From a virus (Duplodnaviria > Caudoviricetes), in the IMG/VR virus record IMGVR_UViG_3300010354_000194, positions 1 to 41,484 of that record: 41,484 nucleotides of DNA. One strand, written 5' to 3'. The notes under the pieces are model-generated. The model was not told where the DNA came from. It worked only from the letters and a program-made list of their open reading frames with translations, and did not search any database. A program made the translations under genes and the position numbers. Position 1 is the stretch's first letter. Each line of letters begins with the position of its first letter. Positions 4,494-24,200 of this stretch are shown piece by piece.

Positions 4494-4537
4494 TCCCTAA
4501 GCGTGACTCTGCCGGCGCCTTTGCGACTGTCGCCGGC

Positions 4538-5683: not shown

Positions 5684-5694
5684 TTTTTCCTACC

Positions 5695-6474: not shown

Positions 6475-6480
6475 GAAAAG

Positions 6481-6512: not shown

Positions 6513-6540
6513 TGTATTCACAATCCCTACCAGAGGACAC

Positions 6541-6750: not shown

Positions 6751-8807
6751 GAGAGCAGATCCAACAGTTGTTGGCCGGCGCCATCGCGCAGCGGCCGGAC
6801 GCGGCGTCGTTTGTCGCAATCGACTTCGAGACGTTCTACCGCAGCGAAAAGGTTGCACGTAAGACCGGCAAGAGCCCGTGCACCGTCGAGCTGTCGGGCA
6901 ACTGGGGGTACTGCCGCCACCCGGAGTGGGAAGCGTACATGGTCAGCATCTACGCGCCTGACGTGCAGTATGTCGGCGACCCTCGTCGCGCGCCGTGGCA
7001 CAAGCTGTATCACCGCACTTGGCTGTCGCACAACGCCAACTTCGATCGCCACGTTTTTGAGCGGCTGGTGGAGCTCGAGATTGTGCTGCCGGTCGACTAC
7101 GTGCAGTGGCACGACACGGCCGACCTCGCGGTTTATTCACACTTACCTCGGTCGCTCGCCAACGCAGCGACCTGTGAGTTCGGAGTAAAGCTAGACAAGC
7201 AGGTGCGGTCGAGCATGGACGGGGTGCGGTGGGCCGACGTCGCGGAGGACGAGCGTAAGCGCGTGCTCGATTACGCGCTCGAGGACGCGGCGCTGTGCTG
7301 GCTGTTGTGGGCCCGGCTGTCTGAGCGGTGGCCGGTGCATGAACGGGCCGCCTCGGTCCACACCGGGCAGATTGAGTTCCGCGGTATTCCCGTGGATTCG
7401 ACCGCCGTCGACCGGGACATCGCGGTGCTTGAGTCGGCGCTGCACGTCACACGGACGCGGATCCCGTGGGTCGACAGCGAGGACGAGAACGGCAAGCCTG
7501 TCGCGTTGCGAAGCAAAGCGGCGCTCGACCGCGAGTGTCTGCGCTGTGGCGTTCAGCCGCCGTCAAGTACGGCGTCGAAGTCGAAGGAGTTTCTGGAGTG
7601 GCTCGACGAGTACGGCGAGCGCGTACCTGCGGTGATCGAGCTCGGCCGATACCGGCGCATCGACCGCACGCTGTCTGTTTATCGGGCGCTCAAGGCGCGG
7701 ATCCGGCCGGACGGGCGGGCGGCGCTCGGCCTCAAGTACATGGGGGCCGCGAAGACCGGAAGGTGGAGCGGGGCGAACAAATTCAACCTGCAGAACTTAA
7801 TGAAGGCGCCGTTGCTTTTCGACGCCGGCTACGGTTGGTCGGAGGATGCAAAGTCCGCGACCCATGTCGTCGACGTCCGCGCCCGGATTGTAGCCTCGCC
7901 CGGGCACAAGCTGATTATCGCCGACCTCTCTCAGATTGAGCCGCGGATGCTCAACTGGATCGTGCGAAACGAGGAGTTTCTCAAGCTGTGCGCGGCGGGG
8001 ATGGGCCCGTACGAAGCTCACGCCCGGGCCTCGATGGGTTGGACTGGTGGCAATCTAAAGAAAGAGAACCCGCAGTTGTACGCGCTCGCGAAGGCGCGCG
8101 TGCTGGCCCTCGGATACGGGGCCGGCTGGCACAAGTTCATTGAGATGGCCCGCGGTTACTTGGGCTCTGAGCAGGAGTTCCTCGCGATCTTTGCGGCCGA
8201 GCCGCCCGAAGGCGCGACGGAAAAGTTCCTCGACTATCTCGGCTGGATGGTCGGCCGACTGGCGCACGCGTCGTCGAAGAAACTGCTTAAAGAGTGGGAC
8301 GTGCTCGATGCGCAGACCCGCAACATCTGGGTGAACGCGTGGGTGCAAGTGACTGAGTTCCGGCGCAGCAACCAGAAGATCAAGGAGCTCTGGCAGCAGT
8401 TTGACGAAGAGATCCTGCACAGCGCGCAGACCACCGGCCCGCAGCGCGGGATACACGAGACCGAGCTGCCGAGCGGCCGCGTCCTGACGTACTTCGAGGT
8501 CACCCGGGCCAACGGCTCTCAGGCCCGACCCAACGACCGCATGGCGATCCCGGTCCGTGCTTACGGGGGCCTGCTTACTGAGAACTGCGTGCAGGCGTGC
8601 TCGCGCGACCTCTTCCTGCACGGCATCCTGAACCTTGAGGCAGCCGGCTACCGCGTTTTGTTTCACGTCCACGACGAAGCAGTGGTCGAGGCAAAGGAAG
8701 ATGCCGACCCAGCCGACGTGGTGCGGCTGCTGACTGCGGTGCCTGAGTGGGCCCGGGGGCTCCCAGTTGCCGCGGAGGCGGAAGTCGCTGCGCACTACAA
8801 AAAGTGA
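6747..8807 (+). CDS. Family A DNA polymerase with 3'-5' exonuclease
   Basis: Exo motifs DFET, HNANFD, YALED; TGRWS, NLQN, motif A DLSQIEPR, motif B KARVLALGYG, motif C HVHDE; GTG start 6747. Confidence 0.95.
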   Translation: MREQIQQLLAGAIAQRPDAASFVAIDFETFYRSEKVARKTGKSPCTVELSGNWGYCRHPEWEAYMVSIYAPDVQYVGDPRRAPWHKLYHRTWLSHNANFDRHVFERLVELEIVLPVDYVQWHDTADLAVYSHLPRSLANAATCEFGVKLDKQVRSSMDGVRWADVAEDERKRVLDYALEDAALCWLLWARLSERWPVHERAASVHTGQIEFRGIPVDSTAVDRDIAVLESALHVTRTRIPWVDSEDENGKPVALRSKAALDRECLRCGVQPPSSTASKSKEFLEWLDEYGERVPAVIELGRYRRIDRTLSVYRALKARIRPDGRAALGLKYMGAAKTGRWSGANKFNLQNLMKAPLLFDAGYGWSEDAKSATHVVDVRARIVASPGHKLIIADLSQIEPRMLNWIVRNEEFLKLCAAGMGPYEAHARASMGWTGGNLKKENPQLYALAKARVLALGYGAGWHKFIEMARGYLGSEQEFLAIFAAEPPEGATEKFLDYLGWMVGRLAHASSKKLLKEWDVLDAQTRNIWVNAWVQVTEFRRSNQKIKELWQQFDEEILHSAQTTGPQRGIHETELPSGRVLTYFEVTRANGSQARPNDRMAIPVRAYGGLLTENCVQACSRDLFLHGILNLEAAGYRVLFHVHDEAVVEAKEDADPADVVRLLTAVPEWARGLPVAAEAEVAAHYKK

Positions 8808-9184
8808 AGACTCAGCAGCACAACGTCCGCCGCTGGTTAGGTCGCGCAACCGAGGCCCGGTTCGTCGCGGATGCCCAAGCTCGCGGGCTGTTGGTCAGCC
8901 GGCCGTTCACCGAGGCGCCCGGGTACGACGCGGTCGTTGACAACGGGCGCAGGCTGATCCGGGTGCAAATTAAAGGGTGCACGCCGAACCCGAAAGGAGT
9001 TTGCCGGATCAACATTAACCGGCACTACCGCCGCCGCGCCCCGCACTTCGACGTGCTGGCCGTGTGGATGACGTCGGTCGGCCGTTGGTTTTTTCTGCCG
9101 AAGAAAGTTCGGTACGTCGAAAAATTAAATCTCCGCGCCAACGGCTGCTACGCCCAGCGCGGTTGGGAATCTCTCACACGATGA
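8804..9184 (+). CDS. PD-(D/E)XK endonuclease (PDDEXK_5-like)
   Basis: GRATEARF...PGYDAVVD....IRVQIKG; GTGA and ATGA coupling. Confidence 0.75.
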   Translation: MKTQQHNVRRWLGRATEARFVADAQARGLLVSRPFTEAPGYDAVVDNGRRLIRVQIKGCTPNPKGVCRININRHYRRRAPHFDVLAVWMTSVGRWFFLPKKVRYVEKLNLRANGCYAQRGWESLTR

Positions 9185-9543
9185 CGACACTACCAGACAC
9201 AGGTGCTCGCACTGAGTACCAGACCGGAGCGGTTCGCGACGCTTCCGAGGGAAAAGGGCATTTCCATGCCATTCCTCCGGGCGCACTACGTCGAATCGCC
9301 AAACGATTTGAAGACGGCGCGCGAAAGTATTCGCGGAACAACTGGATGAAGGGAATCGCGCTGTCGCACTATCAAGACAGCCTGACCCGCCACATCCTCG
9401 CATGGGCCGAGGGGGACACGACGGAAGACCACATGGGCGCGATCCTATGGAACGCTGCCGCGATGGACTGGACCGAGCAGGAGATCGCCGCAGGAAGACT
9501 GCCGGCCGAACTGAACGACCTGCCGTACCGCCGCACGCCATGA
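9181..9543 (+). CDS. dATP/dGTP diphosphohydrolase-domain protein (DUF5664-like)
   Basis: GAVRD..GKG, GARKYSRNNWMKG, DSLTRH, EDHMGAILWN. Confidence 0.8.
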   Translation: MTTLPDTGARTEYQTGAVRDASEGKGHFHAIPPGALRRIAKRFEDGARKYSRNNWMKGIALSHYQDSLTRHILAWAEGDTTEDHMGAILWNAAAMDWTEQEIAAGRLPAELNDLPYRRTP

Positions 9544-11675
9544 GCATCGCGTTCTACATCCCAAACCATTCCAGCTCCGAGCTGCGGAGGGCGGAGCTGT
9601 CTTCGCTTCCGACGCTGTCGACGCGCCCTGAGTTTCCGTCGAAGAAGGAGTTTGCGGCGTGGTGCCACGACAAAAACACCGAGCACGTTTTCTACACGCT
9701 GGCCGAGCCGGAGCAGCCGGCCTTGCGGTCGTCGAGCCACAACCCGGTGAAGTATCTGCACGGCGTCGTGGCGGACTACGACGGCATGGCAGACCTGATC
9801 CAGAGCGAGCTGGCAAAGTGGGAGCCAGCTTCCGGCAAGGCCCCGACGTGGGTGACCACCACGTACTCCGGGAAGGCCCGGTTGATCTGGGCGTTCGAGC
9901 GTCCGGTGCCTGTGTTTAACTCGGAGATCCTCGGCAAGTTCATGTCGTTGCTGGCCCGCACGCTGGCCGTAAAAACGGCGTTGCCGGGCCTAGACGAGGG
10001 CGCGTGGGCAAACCCGCACACTCCGTACGAAGTCGGCACCAACTGGCGGCAGCCGTGGGGCGACGTGCGTCTCTCGTCGGCGTTCGTGATGACGGCGCTG
10101 TACGATGCCAGCGAGAAAGCTAAGTGGAAGGCGGACGACATCCTCATCCCGTTCGAGGCGCTTGCCGCGGAGGTCGATCGCCGCTGGCCGGGCCGCTGGG
10201 CCGGTCCGTTCGTCGAGGGCGCCCGCGGAGTGCGGTTTTGGGATCCGAAGGCGGACAACTCGACTGGATGCACTCTGCGCTCCACCGGCGTGCAGGCGTG
10301 GACCGGCGAAGCGAAATTCCTTCCGTGGTCCGAGGTGCTCGGCGTCGAGTTCGTGAAGAAGTACCGCGAGAACCGAATCGGCGGGGCAATCAGCGAGATC
10401 TACTACGACGGGATGCACTACTGGGAGCGCGACGCGGTCGGGCTGTGGCAAGCGTTCTCCGGGCAACAGATGAGCCGGCGCCTCACGACGGAGCACGGGC
10501 TTTCAAACGAGTCGCGCCGCGGCGCTCCGGCCGAGACCGCGAAGGCATTAAGCGTCATCGAAAACACGCACCGGGTCGACGGCGCGTTCCCGTGCCTCTA
10601 CCTCAAGGACACGGTCATCCGCGACCAGAACAGCGTCTACCTGAACATTTCCCGGGTGTCTGTTTCCCCGGGCACCGGGAAGACGCGGGAGTGGGGAGAC
10701 GGGTTCCCGTGGACCGCCAACTACCTGTCCGGCCTCTTTGACCGCCAGCAGCTCGACGTGCTGCTTTCTTGGATCGCTCACGCGTACCAGCCGGCGGCAG
10801 CGGGCAAGCCGCGCAAGGGTCACGCCCTGTTCATCGCCGGCGACGCGAGCGCCGGTAAGACGTTCCTGTCGCAGTTCCTGATCGGTGGGTTGCTGGGCGG
10901 CCACCAAGAGGCGACTAACTACATCGTCGGCAATACCAACTTCAACGAGCAGCTTTTTCACTCGCCCGTGTGGACCGTCGACGACGCGACGGTCGGCAGC
11001 GACTCCAAGCGCCACGCGCTCTACAGCGCAGCGGTAAAGAAGTTCGTCGCGAACCCCTATCAAGAATTCAGCCCAAAGTTTCGGAAGGCGGTCACGCACA
11101 AGTTCCTTGGCCGCCTCGTCATCACGCTCAACCGCGACGCCTCCTCGATCACCATGCTCCCGCAGATCGAGGGGTCCATCCGCGACAAGCTGATCATTCT
11201 GTCGGCCAACAAAGCCGATACGGACTTCGCGAATTGCGAAGACCACGTCAGGAATGAACGTGCGGCGTTTGCCGACTTCATATCCGGTTGGCAGATACCT
11301 GAGTGGCTCAAAAGCCGGCGGGATGAAGTGAATCGGTTCGGGCACGACGCTTGGCACCACCCGGAGATGCTTGAGATCGCATCGGATGCCTCGCCGTCGG
11401 CCGCGCTGCGCGAGACGATCGAGGCGTGGCGCATCCAGTATTTTCGGCAGTCCAACGACACGTCGTGGTTCGGCACCGCGAACGATCTGGTGACCGAGAT
11501 CCAAAACACTGACATCCTGCGCGGCCAGTTGCCGCGAGTCGCCGACCTCCGCAACCACGTCAAGCAGCACCTGTACCACCTGTGCGAGCAGAACATCTGG
11601 TGGCTGGAGCCGCACCGCACGAAAACCAAGCGCGGGTTTGTCATCGCCCGGCCGCGTCCTGAAGAGCTTCCATGA
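9540..11675 (+). CDS. Primase-helicase (AEP-like N-terminus, SF3/DUF5906-like C-terminal ATPase)
   Basis: VVADYD, TTYSGKARLIW; Walker A GDASAGKT, Walker B WTVDD, ITLN; ATG 9540 in ATGA overlap. Confidence 0.8.
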   Translation: MSIAFYIPNHSSSELRRAELSSLPTLSTRPEFPSKKEFAAWCHDKNTEHVFYTLAEPEQPALRSSSHNPVKYLHGVVADYDGMADLIQSELAKWEPASGKAPTWVTTTYSGKARLIWAFERPVPVFNSEILGKFMSLLARTLAVKTALPGLDEGAWANPHTPYEVGTNWRQPWGDVRLSSAFVMTALYDASEKAKWKADDILIPFEALAAEVDRRWPGRWAGPFVEGARGVRFWDPKADNSTGCTLRSTGVQAWTGEAKFLPWSEVLGVEFVKKYRENRIGGAISEIYYDGMHYWERDAVGLWQAFSGQQMSRRLTTEHGLSNESRRGAPAETAKALSVIENTHRVDGAFPCLYLKDTVIRDQNSVYLNISRVSVSPGTGKTREWGDGFPWTANYLSGLFDRQQLDVLLSWIAHAYQPAAAGKPRKGHALFIAGDASAGKTFLSQFLIGGLLGGHQEATNYIVGNTNFNEQLFHSPVWTVDDATVGSDSKRHALYSAAVKKFVANPYQEFSPKFRKAVTHKFLGRLVITLNRDASSITMLPQIEGSIRDKLIILSANKADTDFANCEDHVRNERAAFADFISGWQIPEWLKSRRDEVNRFGHDAWHHPEMLEIASDASPSAALRETIEAWRIQYFRQSNDTSWFGTANDLVTEIQNTDILRGQLPRVADLRNHVKQHLYHLCEQNIWWLEPHRTKTKRGFVIARPRPEELP

Positions 11676-11866
11676 AACTGATCCCTCAATTCGCGTTTAC
11701 GTGGGGCAACGAGCCCCTCGACATTCGGCTCGGCGTCATCGCCGGGTCGCAATACGACTACGTCCTGCTGTACGGCGACAAGACGCCGCGGCGTTGCCTG
11801 CGCTTCGATTTTACGGTCGGCATGGTGTGGGCCTGCCTGCGCGTGGGGGTGATCGTCCATGCGTGA
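11672..11866 (+). CDS. Hypothetical protein
   Basis: 64 aa; ATGA-coupled. Confidence 0.55.
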   Translation: MKLIPQFAFTWGNEPLDIRLGVIAGSQYDYVLLYGDKTPRRCLRFDFTVGMVWACLRVGVIVHA

Positions 11867-12167
11867 GTACTCGGCGCTGGTGCCGGTTGCCGGGCGGCTG
11901 GTCCGCATCCACTTCGACGCGATCGACGAGCGCGACGCGCTGAATGTCGCAATGGCGTGCCGCGGCGGCCTCACCCCGGATGCCGGGGAACCTGTCGCCC
12001 CGGGCCCCGTGGCGTACGATGTGAAAAAAGCCCGGGAACTCCTTGGCGGAATTTCCCGGGCTACGGTGTACGCGTGGCTGGCGGTCGGCCGGCTCGAGCG
12101 GGTTCCCGGCACGCGCCGGGTGCTGATCACGCGGACTTCGATTGAACGAGTGGCGAGCCGAACGTGA
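11859..12167 (+). CDS. xis: Excisionase-like winged-HTH protein
   Basis: YDVKKARELLGGISRATVYAWLAVGRL...RRVLITRTSIE; converges on the integrase. Confidence 0.7.
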   Translation: MREYSALVPVAGRLVRIHFDAIDERDALNVAMACRGGLTPDAGEPVAPGPVAYDVKKARELLGGISRATVYAWLAVGRLERVPGTRRVLITRTSIERVASRT

Positions 12168-13320
12168 CCTTGGCGGCCGCCGCGAGCGAGTGCCGGCTGC
12201 GCAGGTGGCGGTACGTGCGCATCAGGAGCACGCCGCCGTCTGCGTGGCCGAGCCAGTCGGCGACGGTCGGGATGTCGACGCCCTCCTCGATGCACGCGGT
12301 CGCGAAGTAGTGTCGCAGGTCGTGGTGCCGGAGCGGCTGCAGCCCGAGGCGGGAGCAGGCCCGCTGCATCGCGTCGATGCACGTCTGGACGCCAAGAATC
12401 GGGCCGGAGATGCGCTTCAGCCGGATCTGGTCGAGGAGCGCCCGCAGCGCCGGCAGGATGGGGACGACGCGCTCCGACGTGCTGGTCTTCGTGCCCCGAA
12501 CGTGCAGCCAGTCGCCCCGGATGTCCTCCCACCGGGCGGCCTGAGCCTCCGACAACCGGAGCCCGGAGTACGCGAGAAACCGGGCGTGCTCGGCCGCGTT
12601 TTGCGCGCAGGTCGTGTAGTAGGTAAGCGTGGCCTCGTCGACGTTCTCCGCGTGCGGCACGCGGGCCATCTCGGCGAAAATCCGCTCCATCGTGGCGTTG
12701 TCGGGGATCTCGGGCCGGCGGGTCGCGTCGGGCGCGTAGATCGACTGCCGGATGGCGCCGCCATCGACGAAGGGGTTTGCGAGGATGACGTGATGCTTGA
12801 CTGCGATGTTGAGCATCAAGCGCAGCGCGGCGAGCGTCTGGTTTACCACGGCCGGCTTGTACCCGTGCCGGTCAGGCTGCTGGCGCCGCGGCGCCTTCGT
12901 GAGCAGGTATTCGCGGAGCTGCGAGATGGTATCGCGTGATACCAGTCGGGCCTGCGCGACCTCGAAATCGCCGTGCTGCCAGTTCTCGCGGAGGCGCTGA
13001 ATCCAAACGGAGTATCCCGCTTTCGTGGCGGGGCTTGCGTTGCTGCTCTGGATCTCGCGCTCAAGGGCGCGAGCGAGGGCGCCGAGCGTTTTCAAATCGG
13101 CGTCGATCGTCGTGCCCAATTGCCTCGCGTGCTCGATCACGCCGGTGCGCGTGGCGTGTCGTAGTTTGGCCACGCTGAATACCTTGGTGTGCAGGCAACG
13201 GAAAGTGCGCTTCCCGTTGATGCTGTAACGGCTGTAATACTGCCCGTCAGCGCGCTGGTAGAGTCCGGGCGTGCCGGTCTTTGTCCATTCGGTGGGTTTG
13301 GTAGGGATGGTTGTGTCCAT
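12127..13320 (-). CDS. int: Tyrosine integrase
   Basis: GLRLSE (R), GTKT (K), HDLRH, LGH, RTYRH (Y); N-terminal arm-binding-like GLYQR...YYSRY; likely ATG 13320. Confidence 0.95.
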   Translation of the reverse strand: MDTTIPTKPTEWTKTGTPGLYQRADGQYYSRYSINGKRTFRCLHTKVFSVAKLRHATRTGVIEHARQLGTTIDADLKTLGALARALEREIQSSNASPATKAGYSVWIQRLRENWQHGDFEVAQARLVSRDTISQLREYLLTKAPRRQQPDRHGYKPAVVNQTLAALRLMLNIAVKHHVILANPFVDGGAIRQSIYAPDATRRPEIPDNATMERIFAEMARVPHAENVDEATLTYYTTCAQNAAEHARFLAYSGLRLSEAQAARWEDIRGDWLHVRGTKTSTSERVVPILPALRALLDQIRLKRISGPILGVQTCIDAMQRACSRLGLQPLRHHDLRHYFATACIEEGVDIPTVADWLGHADGGVLLMRTYRHLRSRHSLAAAAKVTFGSPLVQSKSA

Positions 13321-13334
13321 GCACGTCGACCTAT

Positions 13335-13520
13335 TGGTATCGGCGCATGGTATCAAGCACCAAAATCAGCTCTGAGCACCATAGTATTTCTTGGACGCAC
13401 AGGGATGTCTGCCTGTGTCTGGTGATGTCTGCCGCTCTCTGAGGCGGGCGGCGGTGTGGTGGTAGAGCAGCGCCGGTTAGCGCGAGCAACTGCGGCTTCT
13501 GGTATCGGGTCGGTGGTATC
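13335..13520. other. Putative attP region
   Basis: Noncoding next to the int 5' end; paired TGGTATC repeats (13335, 13348 and 13500, 13514) flank three TGTCTG repeats at 10-bp period (13406, 13416, 13426). Confidence 0.6.
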
Positions 13521-13600
13521 GACAAAAGATTTTTTAACTTTTGTATTGCGCTAATAAAAAACGTGTGAATCGTAGGCGTCGTCAACACGACATCCCTACC

Positions 13601-13945
13601 ATGAATAACAACCAAATCGTAAAGCTCCTCCGCGCCATCAAGGCCGCATCCCCCTACTCCTCCCGCAACTTCCGGTGGGAGGTCGGGATGAACAGTCACC
13701 TCGCCGACCCGTACGCGTTCGACCAAAATCTTGGTGGTTACGATGACATCACCTCGTGGAGTTATGGCATCCGCGACGTCAAAGTCGGCACCACGGTGGA
13801 CTTCTACGTTTTCCAGAACCGCGGCTGCGTGGTGCACCAAGATTGGGACTGGGTGACCAACTACATCGTCACCGTCACCTCACCGTCTACCGCCACCATC
13901 CGCGTCACCGGCCAGCCGGTCCGCGATTTTAACCTCGCCGCCTAA
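13601..13945 (+). CDS. Hypothetical protein, first gene of a small operon
   Basis: ATG 13601 directly after TCCCTACC and an AT-rich promoter-like tract; 114 aa. Confidence 0.75.
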   Translation: MNNNQIVKLLRAIKAASPYSSRNFRWEVGMNSHLADPYAFDQNLGGYDDITSWSYGIRDVKVGTTVDFYVFQNRGCVVHQDWDWVTNYIVTVTSPSTATIRVTGQPVRDFNLAA

Positions 13946-13966
13946 ATTTTCGACTTTGTCCCTACC

Positions 13967-14791
13967 ATGAACACGATCAACATCGAAGACGTCCGCCGGC
14001 TCGCTCCGGCGGCTTTCAGCAACACGCCGGACAGCACGCTGTCTGCGTCTTACGCCCACGTCACCACGGCGCACGTTCTCGCTGCGCTACAGGACGACGG
14101 CTGGCGTATCACCGACGCCCGGCAGACCCGAGCCCGCAAGCCCGAGTCGGCCGAGCACAACAAGCACGAGATTTGCCTGACGCACCCGGACCTTCCGGTC
14201 CACGCCGAGGGCGCCCCGGTAGCCCGGATCGCGAACAGCTCGGACGGTGGAAGCGCCGTGCGCCTAATTGCCGGGTTCTTGCGGTTCGCGTGCACGAACC
14301 AGCTCTACGCCGGCATCAAGGTCGCCGGCGGGGTGTTCTACCACAAGGGCGCCGGCCTTGAGGACCGCGTGGTCGCCGGCGCTCGCGAGCTCCGGGCGAA
14401 CTTCGACAAGGTCATCAGCCGCGTCGACCTTTGGCGAGCGATCGAGCTTTCGCCGGACCAGCAGTACGCGTTCGCTCGTCGTGCGGTGAGCGCCCGCTGG
14501 CCGGTCGAGGCTAAGGCGCCCGCCTTCGTTTCGTTTCGCGACGTTCTTGCGCCGCGCCGCGCCTCGGACACGGGCCGCGACCTCTGGTCGACCTTCAACC
14601 GCACGCAGGAGGCACTGGTCCGCGGTGGCTTCCGCGCCTCGTTCCGCCGGTCTGACGAGCAGGGCAACCCTCTCGGGGTGGTCGAGCGCAGCGTGCGCAA
14701 GGTCACCGGGCTGACCGCCAACGAGCGCATCAACACGCAGCTCTGGGATCTCGCGGAGTCCGTCGCGAATGGGCAGGAGGTGCTGGCGTGA
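13967..14791 (+). CDS. DUF932/DUF945-family protein
   Basis: SYAHVTT..V...L...GW, KHEI.L, NSSDGGSA, AGFLRFACTN, DLWSTFNRTQEAL. Confidence 0.85.
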   Translation: MNTINIEDVRRLAPAAFSNTPDSTLSASYAHVTTAHVLAALQDDGWRITDARQTRARKPESAEHNKHEICLTHPDLPVHAEGAPVARIANSSDGGSAVRLIAGFLRFACTNQLYAGIKVAGGVFYHKGAGLEDRVVAGARELRANFDKVISRVDLWRAIELSPDQQYAFARRAVSARWPVEAKAPAFVSFRDVLAPRRASDTGRDLWSTFNRTQEALVRGGFRASFRRSDEQGNPLGVVERSVRKVTGLTANERINTQLWDLAESVANGQEVLA

Positions 14792-14982: not shown

Positions 14983-15151
14983 CCTGCTCGGCCGACTCAG
15001 GCTTCTCTTTCGGCAGGCTGTTTTTCCAGTCCTCGTACCGGCGCAGGGCGGTCAAACTCTTCTTAGCGTTGAGCGAGGTGTATCCGACCGGCTTAATGTG
15101 CTGCCGGGCGCCGTCCACGAGCTTTTTGAGGCGAGGGTCAGGGCTGTTCAC
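14975..15151 (-). CDS. Small basic hypothetical protein, 58 aa; not in ORF track
   Basis: GTG 15151 after AAAGGA; MNSPDPRLKKLVDGARQHIKPVGYTSLNAKKSLTALRRYEDWKNSLPKEKPESAEQEK; fills the gap to the terminator. Confidence 0.55.
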   Translation of the reverse strand: MNSPDPRLKKLVDGARQHIKPVGYTSLNAKKSLTALRRYEDWKNSLPKEKPESAEQEK

Positions 15152-18100
15152 GATAATCCTTTGTGCTTACTTTCTGACCCCTTACCGCCTGCGCTGCGAG
15201 GTATTTCCGCTCGGCCGCAGCCATCGCAGTTGGCGACAGGTTTTCCTCCTTCATGGCCTGAGAAATCTGCGCATCCCGGGCCTCGCGCATCTGCTTGAGC
15301 ATCGCGGTGTCACGAGATTTCAGAGTCGCACCCTCCACCACGACGCCGCTCAACGTCTTCAGGAAATTGATCGACGTGGAGTTCAGCGTCACCCCGTTCA
15401 GGACGAAGGTGCCGTCCGCCTGCGGTTTAAGCGCATAGGCATACTGTCGGAAGTCGCCGAGATCTTCGATGTTGGCCCATCCGCGGCGCCGCCACTCGCG
15501 CTTCTCCGCGAACCACATGATCGCCTGCAGGTCGTCGGCGCCGATGGTCCGGCCCAACGTGTCGGCGAACTGTTCGTTGATCCGCTTCGTCGTCTCCGCG
15601 AAAATCTCCTGACCGAGGAAAAAGTCGCTGTTGCTGACACCCTGCTCGGCCATTGGCAGGATCCGCCAGACGGCAGAAAGCCCGTCGTGACCAAGCCGGC
15701 GGAGCCAGCGCGCCGCCCACACGTCGATCGTAGCCCGGGTGGACAAGCCCGCGAGGTTCTCGGTGAAGTTGGGCGCTTTGGGGGCGTCGGTCTGCTCGCG
15801 CCAGACGCCGTCAAGGATCTGGAGGATGCGGTCGGTATGCACGCCATACTTGCCGCCGCCCTCGCCAGCGCGCTCCAGCTTTACGCCGTTGCGCAGGTTG
15901 AAGAGCACCCAAAACATTTCTTCGTTGAACGCGGCGCGGGATTCCCTGCGCGCCTCGGCCCGCGGAACGCCGTCGGCGACCATCGCGTCGAAGTAGTCCT
16001 TTCGGAACTGTTCCTCGGCGCCCGGCTTGAATACCCACTCAGACAGCGGCTGTCCGTCCTTGATCGCCTGCTTACCGCTTTTGAGGAGGACAGGCTTCAG
16101 CTCGGCGTACTCTCCGACGTTCGCGTCAAACTCGTTCAGCACTCGCCGGTAGTTGTTCAGCAAGCCGTCCAGCTCGCCCTTCTTCCAGCGATTGAACAGG
16201 TCGAGCGCGTACAGGAAGTTCTGCTCGACCGACGTGTTGGGCGATGTGCCGCCGAGGAATTCCAGAAACTTAGTGCGATCGTTCTGGTCCGGGATGAGCT
16301 GCTTGAAGAACTCGGCGATGTCCGAGTACCAGCCGGCCGCCGCCTTGACGTCGGGGTCGGCCGCGTACCGGCGGAAATCGGCGATGGCCCGATCCGAGTA
16401 CGCGTTGACCATCGACGTGAGCGCAGCCTGCTCGTCGGCGGTAAGAGCCGACTGAACGTATCCCGCTTTGACCTTCCCCAGCGTTGTCGTGTTGAGCTTC
16501 GTCTTGAGGGACTGGAGAACGTCCGGGTCGATGTTGAGCGCGGCGACCACCGGCGATTCGTAGAAATTGTACTCCCGCGTCGCGACCTTTGGCCCCTTGT
16601 CGTCGGTCTTGACGACGCCTTTGGAGTTCACCGAAAACTCCAGCGGCAGCGCCTCCGCGTGAACCATCTGGTCCGCGTACCGTTCGGCGACGGTCATTGT
16701 GACAGCGCCCCCCTTTTTGCTCGTTACGGTGAATTTCTGCTCGCCCACTTCGCCGATCGGCCGGGACTTTTCTTCCGGGCGATACCGGATGTCCGGGTTC
16801 TCGGGGTCGAAGGTGCCGGCGTTGTCGGTGGCGGACTTGATCTGGCTCGGGTCGAACGCGACGTAAAATGTCTGCGGGTCTGGATTCAACGCCGAGTCGG
16901 CCAAGTTGTCTTTGATGATGATCCCGTCGAACCCGACCTTTTTGAGATAATCTACGAACTCCCGATTCGACTCAGGGGTTGCGTTGTATGTCTTAACTCC
17001 CGTGTACGTTTCGTAGTCTTTGAGGAGCTGCTCAAATCCCTTCGTGCCCTCATAGACAGCAGGCTCTCGGATGTTCAGGTACGTCTCAAACAAAGGCCCG
17101 ATAGTCTTGTTGCCGTTCTCATCAAAACTAGCGCGGAACTTGTTCGCGTAACTAGGATCTTCTGCAAACCACGAGCCGATGGCGCCCCACTTAGCGTACT
17201 TTGCTTTTGATGGATCGAAGACGGTAAACTCCTTTGGAGATCCGTGAAAAACAACTTTAGGTAGTCCGTAAGCTCCGACCACTTTGCTGGCTCCCTCTGG
17301 GTCAGCCTCCCAATCACCAAACCAATTTTTGAACTCCGGCGTCTCGATCTGCTCGGGCCTGAACTGCATCAGCTCCTGCGGAACGAGGAAGTTCTTCTGT
17401 TCGCCGAACGGACGCTCCTGCGGCGGGACGTAGCCCTCTTCACCCTTCTTCGGGATCGAACCGTCGGCCCGGCGTAGGTGAGCGCCGAAGTTGACCCACG
17501 CATTCTGCGCCAGAGTCTCGGCCGCGACGGCGCCCTGAGCCCCCTCGGAATACATCCGGGAATGACTCTTCCACGCGTTGAACTCGCCGCGGGGACCGAA
17601 CTGCAGCCCCTGTTGCGTGTGGCCGAAGTAGTCGTGGACGACGCGGAAAACGTCGTTCACCAGCAGCTCGAAGTCGCCGATCTTCAGGCCGCTCTTTTCC
17701 AGCAGCGGATTGGCGATGTCCTGCGTGCCCTGCCCAAAGGCGTTGTCGGTGCGCAGGAAGTACAGGTGCTTGTTCTCGCGGACGTCGCGCATCATCTCTT
17801 CCGAGGACGCGTACGGCTCGCCCTTGCCCTTGTACGGCTCCGGCTTGATGCCGGCCGCGATCATCGCCCTGTACTGCTCGATCGTCTCGTCAGCCATCGC
17901 CCGGTAGGATCGCAGCACATCCGGCGCGTCGGGCTGATGCTTCGCGACGTTCTGGAAGTAGTCTGCGATCTCCTTCAGCCGGGCCTCCGGCGCCTCGTCG
18001 TAGACGGTGTGCGGTTCGTACTCCCGGCCGAATGCATTTCTGACGTATTCCGCGGCGATCCGTGTCGTCTCGTCGTTGGCTTCCGGGCGGAACTGCAACG

Positions 18101-21100
18101 AGTCTTCGCCGCGGTTGATGATGCCGCGGCCCGGAGCGTCCGTAGCCGTGGTGATCTTGTCGTATACCGGGTGGATGCGCCCGCGTACCTCGATCTCTCC
18201 TACCTTCTCCCCGACCCGCAGCACCCCGCGAGTCGTCGGACGCAGGCGAGGTTCGCTCTTCTTGTCCTCGTATCGAGCCATCTCGACGGGCGTATCGAAC
18301 TGCGAGTTGAGCGTGTAGAGGTGGTCCTTGCCCATCTCGACACTGACCAGAGTGCTGGTCTGAACCGGAGCCTCGCCGACCCACTTCCAGCCGGCCGACT
18401 GCTTGAACAGATTGGTGCGGATTTTCCGGCCGCTGGTCGGAGCTTCGACCTGAGTATCCGATGCCCGGAGACTCGGCTTTCCTGAGCTGACGTCGATCGA
18501 GCCAGACGAGTAGACGCGCCCGGTCACGTCCTCGCCGGACGCGACGTCGAAGTACTTTCCGCCCTTGGTGTATTCCTGAATGTCGAACCGCTTGAAGAAG
18601 CCCGGAGCGTCGACCTTCTTGCTTTGACGGTCGCCCTCCTCGCCGGTCCCGGTGAACCGTTCCGGGATCGGCAGCACGTCGGGTCGCAGATTCTCCGACA
18701 CGCGTCCGTAGTCGGCGCGGAAGGCCGAATCCAGCACCTTCATCTGGTTGACGCGATCGATTCGCCGCGACTGCACGACGCCGATCTTGCGGCCCTGCGT
18801 GTCGCTCATGCCCTGCAGCACCGGGTTGCGCTCCTTCTGCACGTTGGTGAGCTGGCCGAACAACGCGTTCAGCGCATCACGCTTCTCCAGACCCAGCCCC
18901 TCGGCGCCCTCGCGGCCGGCGACCGTGTTGTCGATGTACTTGAGCAGGTCGGCCCGCGCCGCCCGCACGTCGCCACCCCACGCCTCGAGCATTCCCTTGC
19001 GGGAAAAGAACTCGAGGTTCCGCAGCACCTTCTCCTGCGAGAGGGTGTTGATGAGGACGCCGCCCGTCTTGGAAATCAGGATACTGATCGGGGTCTCGAC
19101 CCGGTTTGTCACCGCCCGCTGCTTGTACAGGCGGCTGCCTCGCGTCATCGCGGGCTGATAGACGAAGTGAACCTCGTTGCCGGGCCGCTTGCCCAGCAGG
19201 TCGGTCACCATCGCCAGTGTCTCGAGCTGGCGCGGGTTGTACTTGTTGCGCGACTGCAGGGTCTCCAGCACGTCGGCGGGGATGTACTTGCCGCTGTAGA
19301 TCGTGCGGCCGTCCTTGGTCGTCACCGCCCGCACGCGCCCGGGCGACAGGTCCGGCGAGGCGTCGAGGGCCTGAATCAGGTCGTCGACGAACTCCTGCTC
19401 CCGCTTCTTCGCTTCACGGGCGGAGAGGAACTTGCGCTTGCCCGTCTTCGGATCGACGTCGACGTCGAAGCCAGACGACACGAGGTCGAGGAGCTCGGGG
19501 TTCGAGGCGATCTCCTGCTCCGAGTAGATCGTCGGGGTCTCGGAGAACGACTCCACCTGACCGCCGCGTTCCGACAGCGTCATGCGGTCGTATTCCCCGA
19601 TGATCTGGTTCACCGCGGACCGGAGCTCCGGGCTCATGTCGGCGCTGAACAGTCCGGTGCCCTTGGCGTGCTGCCCGCCGTCGGTGAAGACCGCACCCGT
19701 TGCCATCAGCGCCCGCTGCAGGACGCCGGAATTCATCACCATCTCGGAGCGGGCGAACTGCTCCATCGCCTGAGCGATCGGGCGGGCGTTGCGCCGCAGG
19801 GCGGCGATGCCTGCGAACTCGCCGGAAGCGTTGGTCGCGAGCAGCGAGGAGACGCCGGCCTCGGCGATCACCTCGTGCAGGATCAGCTCGGGGTTGGCCT
19901 CGTACGCGGCCGTGTCCTTGCCGGCCCGGCGCAGGGCGGAAAGGTACTCGTCCCGGAACGTCTGGAACTCGGGCTTCGGCTGCAGCGTGCCGTCCCGCAT
20001 CTCGGTCAGGAACCCCGGAGTCCCGGTCTTCTCGTCGCCGAGGAACCGGCGCTTCAGGTCGGACGCGATGTCGGGGTTCCGGGCGATGTGGTGCGAGACC
20101 TCGTGCGCCAGCAGGGGGACCAGCGGGATCTTCGAGTCGAGGTCGATCGTGGCCTCGCCGGTGCCGTCCGGGTTGACGCGGTAGGATCCGCCCGAGCCCT
20201 TCTGGCGGACGAAATTGACCACGAGGTTCGGGTTGGTCGCCTCGAAGGTGGACGCGGCGAGCTGCAGGTTGCGCGGAGCCGCGTCGAAGAGTTGCTGCTG
20301 CAGCCCGGTGCGGCGGGAGCGGGCGTCGGCGATGTCGCCGAGCTGACGGGCCCGGACCATCCCCGGGTCGCGCTCCATGCGGATCGTGCGAAGGCCGCCG
20401 CCGAAAAATCCGCCGACGAGACCTTCGCCGGCGCCCTCGGCCGAGTCGCCCTGAAGGAGTCCGAACACGCCGCCGACCGCGGCGCCCTTAACCGCGCCGT
20501 CGATCCCCTCGGCCGCGCCGCGCCCGAGGCGGGCGACGAACTCGACGCGGTTGGCGTTCTGCGCGGCGAAGCGGGTCCAGCCGTCCGTCTCCTTGGCGAG
20601 GCGCTGGAAGTAAGGCGTGGACGACTCCATCGTCCGCATGAGCCGGCCGGCGGCCGATACGTTTTCGCCGAGGTCGTTGAACCAGCCGGCGGTGCGCTCG
20701 ACCACCGAGGGCGAGACTCCAGCCACGCGCTCGAACACCTCGTCGCCGGCCTGCACGGCCTCGCCGCTGGTGCCGAGGGCGCCGGCCCGCTTGTTGCGCA
20801 GCCAGTCGACGCCGCGCTGCACCCGGTCGGCGGCTCCGCTCAACACGTCGCCGGCCGTCTCCACCGCTCCGGCTGCGAGCTGCTGCGTGATCGGCCGCTT
20901 CGCCAATTCCAGCGCCGCATCGTCGGCCCGGCGGACGAACTCGGACTGCATCCGCTCGATCTGCGTGCGCAGTTCGGAAATCTTGCTCGCGTTGTCGGCC
21001 AGCGCCTTCGTCTTCGTCAGCGACTCTTCCGTCGCCTCGATCAGGACGCGCTCCTTCTGCAGGACGGCCATACGCTTGGCCGAATTCATCAGGGCCCCGA

Positions 21101-21968
21101 AGTTCGGCATTTTGTTGCCCGCGGTCTCGGCGGCCACGCGGTACAGGGTCTCGGGGATCGAGCCAGCGTAGGCCCGGGTGCTGTTGATGAGTTCGGCGAC
21201 CTTCTCGGCGCCGACGCTTGTGGCCGCACGCTCGGCCGCCATTGCAGAACGGGTGGCGACCTTGGCGCCCAGCTTGGCGCCGGCCGCGGCTCCCGCGGTG
21301 AAGGCAACGTCGAGCACCTCGGCTGCGCCGCCGGCCGCCCTAAGCATCGTTTCACGCTCCGAGGGCGCGTAGGCGGTGTTCAGGTCGAGGCCCCCGACGA
21401 AATTGTCGGCGATCAACAGTGCGTCGTCTATGACGCCCTGCACGTCGCGCACGGAGCGGTCGTTCGCCTGCCGCACCGCGTAGACTTTGCGCCGGTTTTC
21501 CGGGGTATCCTGATACCCGACCGCCAGCTTGGTGCCGACCTCCTTGAACGCACCCTTCACCGTCTCGCCCATCATCGCGTACGAGCCGCCAATGGCCGCT
21601 GCCGCCTGAGTCGTAAACGCCACCTGCCGGCGCAGCGCCTTTTTCAGTTCTTCGCCGTCGGCCGAGATCGCCGCGCCAGCACCCGACAGGACGTTTTGTC
21701 CGGTGAGCTTACCGGCCATACCGACCTGCGAGACTAGATCGACGGCGGCGTCACCCATGCGGGAGAGGAACCCCGGGCCTCCGGCGGCCTCGTCCGCCTC
21801 CTTGGCGAGGATGTACGCGTCGAGGTTCTCCGGCGCCAACAAGTCGACGGCGACCGGCTCCGGTCCGGCCATCTCTGGCATCAGCCGAGCCAACTCTTCG
21901 TCCGAGACCGGGATAGGGTCAGGGCCGGGCGTTTCCTTGAGCTGGCTGGGACTGGCGAGAGGATTCAT
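15138..21968 (-). CDS. Giant polyvalent (probably virion-ejected) protein: zincin, unknown, HDxxGH, ART-like and HhH-GPD-like modules
   Basis: 2276 aa; last of the internal-virion genes; HEVSH plus HEVIAE; HDYFGH; FKNWFG..VFHGS..YVAFDPSQIKSA; WY..SPNTSVEQN..TIDVW..QAIMW. Confidence 0.85.
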   Translation of the reverse strand: MNPLASPSQLKETPGPDPIPVSDEELARLMPEMAGPEPVAVDLLAPENLDAYILAKEADEAAGGPGFLSRMGDAAVDLVSQVGMAGKLTGQNVLSGAGAAISADGEELKKALRRQVAFTTQAAAAIGGSYAMMGETVKGAFKEVGTKLAVGYQDTPENRRKVYAVRQANDRSVRDVQGVIDDALLIADNFVGGLDLNTAYAPSERETMLRAAGGAAEVLDVAFTAGAAAGAKLGAKVATRSAMAAERAATSVGAEKVAELINSTRAYAGSIPETLYRVAAETAGNKMPNFGALMNSAKRMAVLQKERVLIEATEESLTKTKALADNASKISELRTQIERMQSEFVRRADDAALELAKRPITQQLAAGAVETAGDVLSGAADRVQRGVDWLRNKRAGALGTSGEAVQAGDEVFERVAGVSPSVVERTAGWFNDLGENVSAAGRLMRTMESSTPYFQRLAKETDGWTRFAAQNANRVEFVARLGRGAAEGIDGAVKGAAVGGVFGLLQGDSAEGAGEGLVGGFFGGGLRTIRMERDPGMVRARQLGDIADARSRRTGLQQQLFDAAPRNLQLAASTFEATNPNLVVNFVRQKGSGGSYRVNPDGTGEATIDLDSKIPLVPLLAHEVSHHIARNPDIASDLKRRFLGDEKTGTPGFLTEMRDGTLQPKPEFQTFRDEYLSALRRAGKDTAAYEANPELILHEVIAEAGVSSLLATNASGEFAGIAALRRNARPIAQAMEQFARSEMVMNSGVLQRALMATGAVFTDGGQHAKGTGLFSADMSPELRSAVNQIIGEYDRMTLSERGGQVESFSETPTIYSEQEIASNPELLDLVSSGFDVDVDPKTGKRKFLSAREAKKREQEFVDDLIQALDASPDLSPGRVRAVTTKDGRTIYSGKYIPADVLETLQSRNKYNPRQLETLAMVTDLLGKRPGNEVHFVYQPAMTRGSRLYKQRAVTNRVETPISILISKTGGVLINTLSQEKVLRNLEFFSRKGMLEAWGGDVRAARADLLKYIDNTVAGREGAEGLGLEKRDALNALFGQLTNVQKERNPVLQGMSDTQGRKIGVVQSRRIDRVNQMKVLDSAFRADYGRVSENLRPDVLPIPERFTGTGEEGDRQSKKVDAPGFFKRFDIQEYTKGGKYFDVASGEDVTGRVYSSGSIDVSSGKPSLRASDTQVEAPTSGRKIRTNLFKQSAGWKWVGEAPVQTSTLVSVEMGKDHLYTLNSQFDTPVEMARYEDKKSEPRLRPTTRGVLRVGEKVGEIEVRGRIHPVYDKITTATDAPGRGIINRGEDSLQFRPEANDETTRIAAEYVRNAFGREYEPHTVYDEAPEARLKEIADYFQNVAKHQPDAPDVLRSYRAMADETIEQYRAMIAAGIKPEPYKGKGEPYASSEEMMRDVRENKHLYFLRTDNAFGQGTQDIANPLLEKSGLKIGDFELLVNDVFRVVHDYFGHTQQGLQFGPRGEFNAWKSHSRMYSEGAQGAVAAETLAQNAWVNFGAHLRRADGSIPKKGEEGYVPPQERPFGEQKNFLVPQELMQFRPEQIETPEFKNWFGDWEADPEGASKVVGAYGLPKVVFHGSPKEFTVFDPSKAKYAKWGAIGSWFAEDPSYANKFRASFDENGNKTIGPLFETYLNIREPAVYEGTKGFEQLLKDYETYTGVKTYNATPESNREFVDYLKKVGFDGIIIKDNLADSALNPDPQTFYVAFDPSQIKSATDNAGTFDPENPDIRYRPEEKSRPIGEVGEQKFTVTSKKGGAVTMTVAERYADQMVHAEALPLEFSVNSKGVVKTDDKGPKVATREYNFYESPVVAALNIDPDVLQSLKTKLNTTTLGKVKAGYVQSALTADEQAALTSMVNAYSDRAIADFRRYAADPDVKAAAGWYSDIAEFFKQLIPDQNDRTKFLEFLGGTSPNTSVEQNFLYALDLFNRWKKGELDGLLNNYRRVLNEFDANVGEYAELKPVLLKSGKQAIKDGQPLSEWVFKPGAEEQFRKDYFDAMVADGVPRAEARRESRAAFNEEMFWVLFNLRNGVKLERAGEGGGKYGVHTDRILQILDGVWREQTDAPKAPNFTENLAGLSTRATIDVWAARWLRRLGHDGLSAVWRILPMAEQGVSNSDFFLGQEIFAETTKRINEQFADTLGRTIGADDLQAIMWFAEKREWRRRGWANIEDLGDFRQYAYALKPQADGTFVLNGVTLNSTSINFLKTLSGVVVEGATLKSRDTAMLKQMREARDAQISQAMKEENLSPTAMAAAERKYLAAQAVRGQKVSTKDYREQP

Positions 21969-23421
21969 CTGGAATCTTGAAGGTCTTGCCCGTCTCGTCC
22001 CTCACGAGAACCATCCCGTCAGGAGTCGTTCCGAGCTTGGTGTAGCTTTTACCCTTATAGCTCAGGCTGTTGGTGGGTGTCGAGGGACCGTCGGGCGAGA
22101 TGCGCCGGCTGCGGATGGAATCGCGGCTCCAGTAGCGCGCATCGACGTCAAGGCCGTTCTGCCGCGCCGTGGTCGCCATTTTGTTGAAGAGCGCCTCACG
22201 CGAGGCCCGGTAGCCGGCCTTGGCGCGGTTGCGGAAGAACGGAACCAACACCGACGCGTCAGTTGGATCCTGCGCAAACTTTTCGAGGATCTTCCACTCT
22301 GCCTCAGTGACGGCGCCCGGGCCGACAATCGCGAGACGATTGGTAGCTTGTATCAGCTTGGCCAGCACACCAGCGCGGCCGGAAAGTTCGGGGTCGGCGA
22401 TCTTCTTCGGGTCGGCGGCAATCTGATTGGCAACGTCCTCGAGCTCGTAGATGAGCCCCATCGAAGTCTCCGTAGCCGCGGACTCCTCGCCGATCTTGGC
22501 AGCGACGACACCGCTGCGGGCCTTGCCGGCAAAACCGGGCACCGTGAGGGCGTTTTGTTCGTCGCGGAACTTCTGTTCCTGCATCCTCTGGTCCTCAAGG
22601 TCGCGCTTGTCCTTCTCGCGCTTGCGCGTGAACTCGGCCGCAGCCTGCACGGCCTTGTAGTACTCGCCGGAAAAATTGGATCCGGGCACGCCCATGACCG
22701 TCTGCACGTCGGCGTCCTGCTGAACTGCTTCGATTTTCGCCATGTCGCCGGTGGCCCGAGCGGCGTTCAGCTTCGCCATCGCCCGCGCCTCGACTTGCGG
22801 GTCGGCCTGCCCTGTAGGCAGGAAAAAGCTCATTGGAGCGCCACCCATAGGGTTGGGGCGCGTCACCAAGCGCAGAGCCTGCCCCGGAAACTTCATGCGG
22901 GCGTCCGCCTCGGTCGTGGCGTACTGCGCCGTGCTGATGTACTCTTGCAGCTTACTTTTCTCGTTGGCGTCCACCAAAGCCAAAGTGCTCTGCATCTGCT
23001 TCTGCAGGATCGCAGCCACCTTGGGGTCCTTGTTGAAACGGGCCGCTTGGCTCTCGAGCTGCGCGATTAGTCGGCGCTGCTGAAAAGGGTCCGTCATGTT
23101 CTGCACGCTCGCCAGCGCCGCATCAATGTCCGGCGCAACCCGGTTGTACTCTGACCGGATGTCGGCCAGCTCCTTTGCAACGCGTTCGTCTTCGCGAAAC
23201 TGAATCTCGCGAATACCGATTTCGGCACGGAGCGCCTGCTGATTCAGGTCGCTGGTCGCAATATCGGCGGCGTGCTTTTCCTGCCGCATCATAAAATCCT
23301 GCTCGGCGAATCGGCGGCGCTGGGCCCGCTCCATGAGCGAAGACGCGGCTTCAGCCGACTGAATCCCGAAGGTAGGAAGGGCGAGGCCGGCGTTGCCGGC
23401 TTGGAATTCGGCGAATGGCAT
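21919..23421 (-). CDS. Internal virion/ejection protein
   Basis: 500 aa helical, Q/A/E/K-rich; GPGAVTEAE motif; podoviral position. Confidence 0.6.
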   Translation of the reverse strand: MPFAEFQAGNAGLALPTFGIQSAEAASSLMERAQRRRFAEQDFMMRQEKHAADIATSDLNQQALRAEIGIREIQFREDERVAKELADIRSEYNRVAPDIDAALASVQNMTDPFQQRRLIAQLESQAARFNKDPKVAAILQKQMQSTLALVDANEKSKLQEYISTAQYATTEADARMKFPGQALRLVTRPNPMGGAPMSFFLPTGQADPQVEARAMAKLNAARATGDMAKIEAVQQDADVQTVMGVPGSNFSGEYYKAVQAAAEFTRKREKDKRDLEDQRMQEQKFRDEQNALTVPGFAGKARSGVVAAKIGEESAATETSMGLIYELEDVANQIAADPKKIADPELSGRAGVLAKLIQATNRLAIVGPGAVTEAEWKILEKFAQDPTDASVLVPFFRNRAKAGYRASREALFNKMATTARQNGLDVDARYWSRDSIRSRRISPDGPSTPTNSLSYKGKSYTKLGTTPDGMVLVRDETGKTFKIPDESSRQSQPAQGNARP

Positions 23422-23426: not shown

Positions 23427-24200
23427 TTAGCCGTCGACAGTGTACGCAGTCATCGTGTTACCCCGAGCGTCGGGGCGCCTGAGAACTCGGCTTTGCGGCC
23501 GCTGGCTTTCCATCATCGCGTTCCCAGCGAAGTTGCTGGCGTTCATAAACGCGCCGGCCATCATCATGTTGTTGTAGTTGCTCGCGGCGGCGTTGGCGTT
23601 GTAGCCGGCTTGCTGGGTGTTGTACGCCATCTGGTTGTTCTGAGTCTGCACGCTAATCGCCGCGTTCGGGTCGACCATCATAGCCATTGGCGACATTGGG
23701 TTCACCCGTGGAGTCATACCGAACACCGTCGACAGCGTATTGAGCGCACGGGTGCGGCTGGCGTTCTTCCAGTCCATCAAGTTGAACCCAAAATCCTTGA
23801 CGAGATTGAAGCCGTTGAAGTTTCCGCTCGTGCCGCGGGTAACGCCCTTTTCCGCGGCGTAGCGGGCGATCTGCTGTTGGACCTCGGCAGGCAGGCTGTT
23901 TTGATTTGCGAGGTCCTCGTTGATCTGCGCCATCAGGCGCTTCTGCGTGGCACCAAACCCCGGCATCGCGGACTCAAGCAGGCGCGTGGCCTCGCTCTGG
24001 TTGAACGAATTCGTCTGCGACGCCACGTCCTGAGCGCCGGCCATGTTCTGCAGGTTGCCCGTGATGGTCTGCTTCTGGACTGCGGCGGGATCGACCGGCG
24101 TGTACGACGCCTGTTGCGGCGCCTTCTGTTTGCCGAGCACCGAGCCGAGGATTTGCCCTCCGGCCTGCACTAGCATCGCGGTGGTGAAGGGGTCCATCAT
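23427..24200 (-). CDS. Internal virion (pilot-like) protein
   Basis: MDPFTTAMLVQAGGQILGSVLG N-terminus; Q/N/A/M-rich. Confidence 0.6.
   Translation of the reverse strand: MMDPFTTAMLVQAGGQILGSVLGKQKAPQQASYTPVDPAAVQKQTITGNLQNMAGAQDVASQTNSFNQSEATRLLESAMPGFGATQKRLMAQINEDLANQNSLPAEVQQQIARYAAEKGVTRGTSGNFNGFNLVKDFGFNLMDWKNASRTRALNTLSTVFGMTPRVNPMSPMAMMVDPNAAISVQTQNNQMAYNTQQAGYNANAAASNYNNMMMAGAFMNASNFAGNAMMESQRPQSRVLRRPDARGNTMTAYTVDG

Follow-up and report, generated by a model that had tools for sequence, protein, structure and literature searches.

The question raised by this locus is what a short amino acid word is for that recurs along one very large phage protein. The locus is on IMG/VR virus record IMGVR_UViG_3300010354_000194 (Duplodnaviria; Caudoviricetes), and all 41,484 nucleotides of this record, which is about 76% complete, make up the window analysed here. 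The protein, P0001, is a polyvalent protein of 2276 amino acids (aa) in which the word [FYL]RP[ED], here called the tag, occurs four times behind a zincin-like domain. An earlier note on this DNA had suggested that the tag is a cleavage or translocation signal, a recombination joint, or both. We find that related phages exchange modules at the tag and that the tag is spelled in a lineage-specific way. Our reading, to which we give a probability of roughly 0.6, is that P0001 is an injected phage polyprotein whose own zincin cuts at the tags and thereby frees the cargo. The parts of the protein, with nucleotide positions in the window, are as follows.

15138..21968, minus strand: gene for the polyvalent protein (P0001, 2276 aa), last gene of a minus-strand block of virion genes
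20361..21968, minus strand: N-terminal region, aa 1-536, Ala/Gly-rich in sequence
19569..20360, minus strand: zincin-like metallopeptidase domain, aa 537-800 (structure model, fold matches, conservation)
20091..20105, minus strand: HEVSH, aa 622-626, two predicted zinc ligands and the predicted catalytic Glu (motif, conservation)
19860..19877, minus strand: HEVIAE, aa 698-703, E699 being the predicted third zinc ligand (conservation)
18699..19265, minus strand: WYL-like Sm/SH3 barrel, about aa 902-1090, with a helical insertion of about 85 aa (model, conservation)
18753..18767, minus strand: RRIDR, aa 1068-1072, resembling the Arg-x-x-Arg strand of WYL domains (spacing)
18678..18692, minus strand: tag 1, NLRPD, aa 1093-1097, end of the core (motif; Pro nearly invariant)
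18081..18677, minus strand: module B, aa 1098-1296 (recurs in close relatives)
18081..18095, minus strand: tag 2, QFRPE, aa 1292-1296 (motif)
17352..18080, minus strand: module A, aa 1297-1539, phrog_3170-like, with an HDYFGH motif (PHROG match)
17352..17366, minus strand: tag 3, QFRPE, aa 1535-1539 (motif)
16773..17351, minus strand: module C, aa 1540-1732, ART-PolyVal ADP-ribosyltransferase (ART) domain (PF18760)
16773..16787, minus strand: tag 4, RYRPE, aa 1728-1732 (motif)
15141..16772, minus strand: terminal module D, aa 1733-2276, DUF7178-related (PF23802, Atlas)

All four tags (NLRPD, QFRPE, QFRPE and RYRPE) are at the nucleotides given in the earlier note, and they are the sole [FYL]RP[ED] matches in P0001. 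By chance 0.15 matches are expected and 0 of 20,000 shuffled sequences gave four, a figure that flatters because the pattern was derived from the same sequence. With their tags included the units are 1097, 199, 243, 193 and 544 aa long, close to the core of about 1095 aa containing HEVSH..HEVIAE (found at aa 622 and 698) and the modules of about 195, 240, 190 and 545 aa that had been described before. One chain joins a zincin, a WYL-like domain, an ART-PolyVal domain, a DUF7178-like module and two unassigned modules; of these, the zincin and the ART-PolyVal domain are hallmarks of phage polyvalent proteins.

To compare P0001 with its kin we searched with aa 560-1100, which gave ten close relatives (74-99% identical in this region, 1638-2716 aa long). 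Cut at the tags, the relatives fall into whole modules that are homologous end to end and that occur in differing order: B-A-C-D in the window, B-A-G-H in P0002, B-A-C-I-E-F in P0003, B-C-G-H in P0005 and x-A-D in P0010. Module B is present in 5/11 and module A in 6/11 close relatives, and module A is also found behind distant cores. We then measured, blind to the motif, where homology blocks end in 13 related proteins. Of 66 block ends 47 were within 20 aa of a strict tag; with the core end excluded, 34 of 53 downstream ends were this close compared with 5.5 expected, although these proteins are kin and the counts are not independent events. Eight of the remaining 19 ends are at the variants LSPE, YRPS and YSPG and 11 are inside the divergent modules G, D and K. 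When divergent patches within modules are also taken as ends, the result is 37/82 against 10.9 expected. Seen from the other side, 46 of 56 tags coincide with a breakpoint. The proposal that the tags are module boundaries, and that gains and losses in homologues would break there, is thus supported by the module changes seen at the tag among related phages, which include gain, loss and exchange.

Exchange also takes place within the tagged frame. P0004, with a core 98% identical to that of P0001, has between the same tags an ART only 29% identical to the window's. In the window, the G+C content at third codon positions of module C is 0.66 compared with 0.87-0.94 in the core, indicating foreign codon use; it is 0.60 in the interior of the module and host-like at its ends. 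ART alleles are therefore replaced between conserved ends, as seen from the P0004 ART and from this composition.

The larger family gives information about the spelling of the tag. With a profile of the core we matched 800 clusters (50% identity) at E ≤ 0.001; the listing covers the best 150. The core end reads N-x-x-P in 161 aligned cores and the Pro is present in 157 of these. After removal of 4 proteins without this Pro and 9 near-duplicates, 148 proteins remained as a test set and 97 of these have at least 300 aa of cargo. Downstream of the core in these 97 proteins, 160 of 617 [FY]xP words carry the same middle residue as the core end, compared with 66±10.5 in permuted data (0/20,000 permutations reached the observed value). 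By contrast, own-class words upstream show no excess (23 against 19.8±4.1). Proteins with a Met core have 76 downstream [FY]MP words and those with an Arg core have none. Spellings by lineage include F-R-P, F-M-P and F-S-P; the spelling classes cluster on the tree and 41 of 45 classifiable proteins agree with the lineage of their core.

Single modules outweigh these counts, because near-identical modules carry the spelling of the protein in which they sit. P0020 carries an ART with 71% identity to that of the window; it ends RYSL, and all five joints of P0020 read [RK][FY]SL. Module A of P0186 is 77% identical and ends QFSAG in a protein with a core that ends NATAG; a 68% identical module K ends RYTPG behind a core ending NFTPG. 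In the other direction, the window-clade ARTs that are 29% identical both end YRPE. In P0186 and P0205 the nearly invariant Pro of the core end is replaced by Ala. In P0186 all of the module tags are altered together with the core end (YTTG, FTAG, FSAG). From their sequences, P0186 and P0205 are candidate natural specificity variants. A related signal is seen outside the family: in 54 non-redundant ART polyvalent proteins, nearly all of them from outside it, each protein's own three-residue tag is enriched away from the ART ends (75 against 41±6), and a loose two-residue tag is not enriched in the same proteins (302 against 284±17, p 0.15). Together, these data indicate that the tag forms a code that differs by lineage throughout a large family, a feature that had been overlooked before.

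We compared same-residue codon pairs within the 21 genes for which DNA was available. The four tags of P0001 use CGA, CGC, AGG and CGC for Arg, and CCC or CCG for Pro. The same codon was used in 10 of 28 pairs of R-type tags (11.7 expected from gene-wide usage) and in 47 of 155 pairs of M-type tags (60.7 expected), and only 4 of 107 tag pairs are identical across 9 nt. Phe and Tyr interchange in the tags. No repeat family among the 20 largest listed joins the tags, and a Pfam scan of the 37 open reading frames (ORFs) of this incomplete record found no site-specific recombinase. The codon just upstream of M-type tags does agree more than expected (15/31 against 6.8), a sign that some linkers may be copies. 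The tag is kept by selection on the peptide, as fits a cleavage or recognition signal. Of the earlier idea of a recombination joint, one part holds, namely that crossovers occur at the tags; a DNA joint as the reason for keeping the tag does not, given the synonymous codons and the lack of a repeat. Because the joints change spelling together and the DNA holds no signal, each protein must have a single reader that recognises its tags.

The proposed reader is in the core. The model of aa 537-1097 (predicted local distance difference test, pLDDT, 83.7; predicted template modelling score 0.55) has two domains, and in the first of these, strands at model residues 46-73, forming a three-stranded sheet, precede the HExxH helix at 80-93. 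The VIA-align matches to this domain are zinc metallopeptidase folds with Z from 7.4 down to 5, values that are middling according to the tool's own note; they include the lethal factor catalytic domain (7.4), PPEP-3 (6.3), ArdC (6.1), PPEP-2 (5.9), PprI (5.9) and CapP (5.5). These fold neighbours, ArdC, PprI, CapP and PPEP-2/3 included, are themselves active zinc endopeptidases. H622, E623 and H626 are present in 155 of the 161 aligned cores and the other six rows are gapped, so HExxH is in every ungapped row. Y675 is in 155/161 and E699 in 157/161; H698 is not conserved. The zincin of P0001 has no Pfam match, and 8 of 42 family members have a weak match to Peptidase_M48 (best E 0.0013). Foldseek searches against the PDB with this model and with one of aa 857-1097 gave no match at E ≤ 0.001, and when PDB sequences were searched with profiles or single sequences the matches were weak or compositional only, including IrrE at E 0.063. 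With its motif set intact and a zincin fold in the model, the zincin proposed in the earlier note stands, and the core is predicted to hold a zinc protease with catalytic residues that are intact family-wide.

Between the zincin and tag 1 the core is predicted to carry a second domain, a WYL-like barrel, that had been overlooked. Folded alone, aa 857-1097 gave a pLDDT of 92.8. The top nine of 48,161 chains matching this model are WYL proteins (Z 8.1-6.6, again middling by the tool's note), among them PafBC (8.1 and 7.8), BrxR (7.5), CapW (7.3) and DriD (7.0), with root-mean-square deviations of 2.3-4.2 over 81-101 residues; unrelated chains scored lower, starting at Z 6.0 for a designed SH3 barrel, with Hfq at 5.3. 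Among the 161 cores Y937 is conserved in 157, R956 in 120, R1069 in 157, D1071 in 151 and R1072 in 158, and the RRIDR strand has the family forms S-F-R-L-D-R and T-F-R-L-D-R. Passages of one study name Y168, R178, R204 and R207 as the residues of DriD that bind single-stranded DNA (ssDNA), with Arg204 and Arg207 forming an Arg-x-x-Arg strand (PMC9186387). The order of Y937, R956, R1069 and R1072 matches these, an equivalence based on order and spacing, not superposition. We call the domain WYL-like only, because the W-Y-L tripeptide is absent (the strand reads G-G-V-L in P0001 and G-N-V-x in the family), no Pfam WYL match was found in 42 family members, and there is no helix-turn-helix or WCX partner. 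Zincin proteins P0020, P0024 and P0053 carry tags even though they lack the WYL motif, and therefore the zincin is the common partner of the tags.

From this we propose that the chain would be packaged and ejected as the last of the products of three ejection-type genes. The zincin would then recognise the tag and would probably read it upstream of the cut, since the tag moves together with the end of the preceding unit and persists in proteins that stop soon after it. After entry the cut would release the ADP-ribosyltransferase, the DUF7178-like module and the two unassigned modules. Swapping at the tags would follow, since a chimera joined anywhere else would not retain modules that are whole and releasable, and a newly acquired module would have to drift to the spelling of its host protein. 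We favour cutting in cis by the zincin because an intact zincin upstream is the constant partner of the tags and because none of 12 other ORFs checked has the strict tag or HExxH. The WYL-like barrel may, more speculatively, gate the protease by binding nucleic acid. A fuller version of the proposal, in which this WYL-like sensor detects ssDNA or RNA at entry and turns on the zincin, cargo is freed at lineage tags and the code sets the pools within which cargo is exchanged, is tentative, with the odds against it as a whole. Post-entry timing and WYL gating are inferred by analogy to the ssDNA-activated proteases PprI and CapP.

Several results weigh against cutting by the zincin. There are just 7 changes of spelling among the 45 classifiable proteins, with 3-5 independent pairs per class, none of them opposite (p 0.25-0.5); the tree-corrected test is non-significant because independent switches of spelling are few. 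At the protein level, 9 of 148 proteins end no more than 9 aa past the core-end tag and have nothing to release. The core-end tag also seems to be structural, since by mutual information N1093 co-varies with R1030/D1031. The word xLRPE within module I+E is never a breakpoint (6/6) and accounts for six of the ten tags without one, R-type proteins have off-class LSPE joints, and module A lacks an end tag in four proteins (P0172, P0226, P0230 and P0239). No zincin residue clearly co-varies with the middle residue of the tag (mutual information, best z 3.9), and no family member with a dead protease was found that could serve as a control. According to PMC5512222, such peptidases are also carried by N4 virion RNA polymerase, ArdC and TraC1, yet these proteins are delivered intact, by packaging or transfer.

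Some of these points suit a different role, in which the tag is an uncut docking or handling motif and module ends mimic the tail of the core, binding a pocket in the core or in the ejection channel during packing, unfolding or threading. Tag 1 is just beyond the last helix of the WYL-like domain and seems to be packed on it (pLDDT 76-79; co-variation of N1093 with R1030/D1031). Retention of the tag in the nine proteins that stop just past it and whole delivery of other peptidase-bearing proteins would also be explained, and selection on the peptide and the code would suit any protein reader. However, tags are present in proteins that have no WYL motif, the Asn through which the core makes contact is missing from the module tags, and tags are limited to the cargo side of a zincin that is catalytically intact throughout. 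We consider docking without cutting to be unlikely.

Less likely still is that the tags are cut by another protease, from the phage head, encoded elsewhere or from the host, while the zincin has a target in the host or acts on the cell wall. The record is incomplete and may lack a protease gene, no residue of the zincin pocket tracks the tag, and in passages of a preprint on phi24B a wall-degrading role is proposed for a similar peptidase domain (bioRxiv 10.64898/2026.04.10.717836). Two other ORFs of the virion block, among the 12 checked, contain the near-tags RRPD and SRPD. By contrast, neither a strict [FYL]RP[ED] tag nor HExxH was found in any of the 12 other minus-strand ORFs checked, among them the likely capsid and scaffold proteins, and spelling follows core lineage in most proteins that could be classified.

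We give little credence to the idea that the tag is a mere recombination joint or duplicated insertion site that provides short DNA homology for cassette exchange. Crossovers do cluster at the tags and codons before M-type tags over-agree. In addition, among cores less than 35% identical, a stretch of at least 55% identity is shared by 34 of 1038 same-class pairs compared with 11 of 2473 different-class pairs, a count that is confounded by kinship and common hosts. Against this, codons within the tags are no more alike than gene-wide usage predicts, Phe and Tyr swap, none of the 20 largest repeat families listed joins the tags, and the spelling of modules is altered at every joint of a protein at once. 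A structural cap closing each domain is a highly improbable role for the tag: ART modules do end D-I-x-aromatic in nearly all polyvalent proteins examined, but unrelated modules share one spelling per protein and the same module is respelled between proteins.

Parts of the preferred reading, cutting by the core zincin, have precedents. In RNA-virus polyproteins and with the T4 gp21 prohead protease, a short recurring sequence marks the cuts between units; P0001 differs from these in protease class and in that the tag is absent from the 12 other ORFs checked. PprI/IrrE is an ssDNA-activated zinc protease. The substrate of PprI and of CapP is a separate repressor, and neither is known to use a WYL domain, whereas the proposed substrate of the P0001 zincin is the same chain. 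P0001 is predicted to share the zincin fold of PprI/IrrE, CapP and ArdC, and coupling of nucleic-acid sensing to a zinc protease would be a common logic. The joints of P0001 differ from those of integrons and shufflons, having no conserved DNA recombination site as judged from synonymous variation and the 20 largest repeats. Passages of PMC11662680 describe CapP as an ssDNA-activated zinc protease. The predicted barrel seems to share with the WYL domains of PafBC, DriD, CapW and BrxR the order of a conserved Tyr, Arg and Arg-x-x-Arg, as far as passages of PMC9186387 and PMC11662680 describe them; unlike these, it has an insertion of about 85 aa and no W-Y-L, and it belongs to a phage protein in which it is joined to a protease. 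Like the polyvalent proteins of Iyer 2017, P0001 joins an HExxH...E zincin, an ART-PolyVal domain and unrelated domains, and self-processing by the metallopeptidase, by analogy to viral polyproteins, is proposed there (PMC5512222). In the passages of its main text no cleavage site, linker or WYL domain is described, whereas the P0001 family has the tag, the exchange and a fixed zincin-WYL core. The passages of PMC9503650 and of the phi24B preprint name no such tag or core either, and no report of them was found in the literature within reach of the search, which excluded most subscription papers. What has been published is the class of polyvalent proteins and the proposal that they process themselves; the tag, exchange at the tag and the zincin-WYL core appear to be new.

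The cargo is varied. The ART-PolyVal match of module C (PF18760) covers aa 1568-1720 and profile positions 4-140 of 140 (E 1.4e-23), between tags 3 and 4. Module D matches PF23802 below the cut-off (E 1.3e-4) and DUF7178 clusters in Atlas (0.95); its family has the motif GPKTPNF..NL.G...TIDVWAAR with an invariant Lys and Asp 18 residues apart. This spacing recalls DNA glycosylases of the HhH-GPD or endonuclease III type, and we presume that DUF7178 may have such a fold. Module A matches phrog_3170 (E 4.5e-15), and at about aa 1445-1480 it carries HDYFGH and, after it, G-E-F-N-A-W-x-x-H, which distant copies retain (P0020 has HDAFGH); this region is possibly a second metal site. Module B has no Pfam, PHROG or Atlas match. 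In relatives the cargo adds PBECR5, GNAT, PRTase, LPD3 and Kinase-PolyVal domains. At the other end of the chain, aa 1-536 have no tags and no Pfam or PHROG match but contain a hydrophobic Gly-rich stretch near aa 493-525, and are likely an ejection or membrane part; the relatives L002, L004 and L005 can be aligned from residue 1.

The polyvalent gene is among virion genes. A terminase-like gene (35415-37169; phrog_2, E 1e-7) and a tail-like gene are upstream in the same block, and the gene order is retained in L002. Two of the upstream genes, both retained in L002, are the following.

21919-23421, minus strand: 500-aa ORF directly upstream of the polyvalent gene
23427-24200, minus strand: 257-aa ORF, also upstream of it

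Neither has a family match, but from position and composition both are likely further ejection proteins. The RRPD of the 257-aa ORF is near its C-terminus and resembles the core-end variant NRRPE. A replication block (2606-11675, plus strand) encodes a helicase, a DUF2800 nuclease, a family A DNA polymerase, a PD-(D/E)XK nuclease, a DUF5906 primase-helicase-like gene and a dATP/dGTP diphosphohydrolase domain (9064-9543), which may hint at base modification. A DUF932 gene (13967-14791, plus strand) converges on the polyvalent gene. No match to a cultured phage was found among 50,697 GenBank phage records, and scans of viral contigs with the core alone or with P0136 gave no matches. L006, a core-family member at 10001-14035 with one short cargo module, lies on a contig of 349 kb recorded for an Opitutaceae genome, and some family members are thus likely prophages of Verrucomicrobiota.

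Since 2017 the question has stood whether the peptidases built into polyvalent proteins cut them, and at which sites; P0001 supplies exact candidate sites, with natural variants in which all of these sites change together. A sequence-specific protease with natural specificity variants would, if the reading is true, be useful as a reagent. With the tags as a guide, uncharacterised polyproteins of phages can be divided into their individual cargo domains. A WYL-like trigger, if true, would explain how a chain that cuts itself stays whole until entry.

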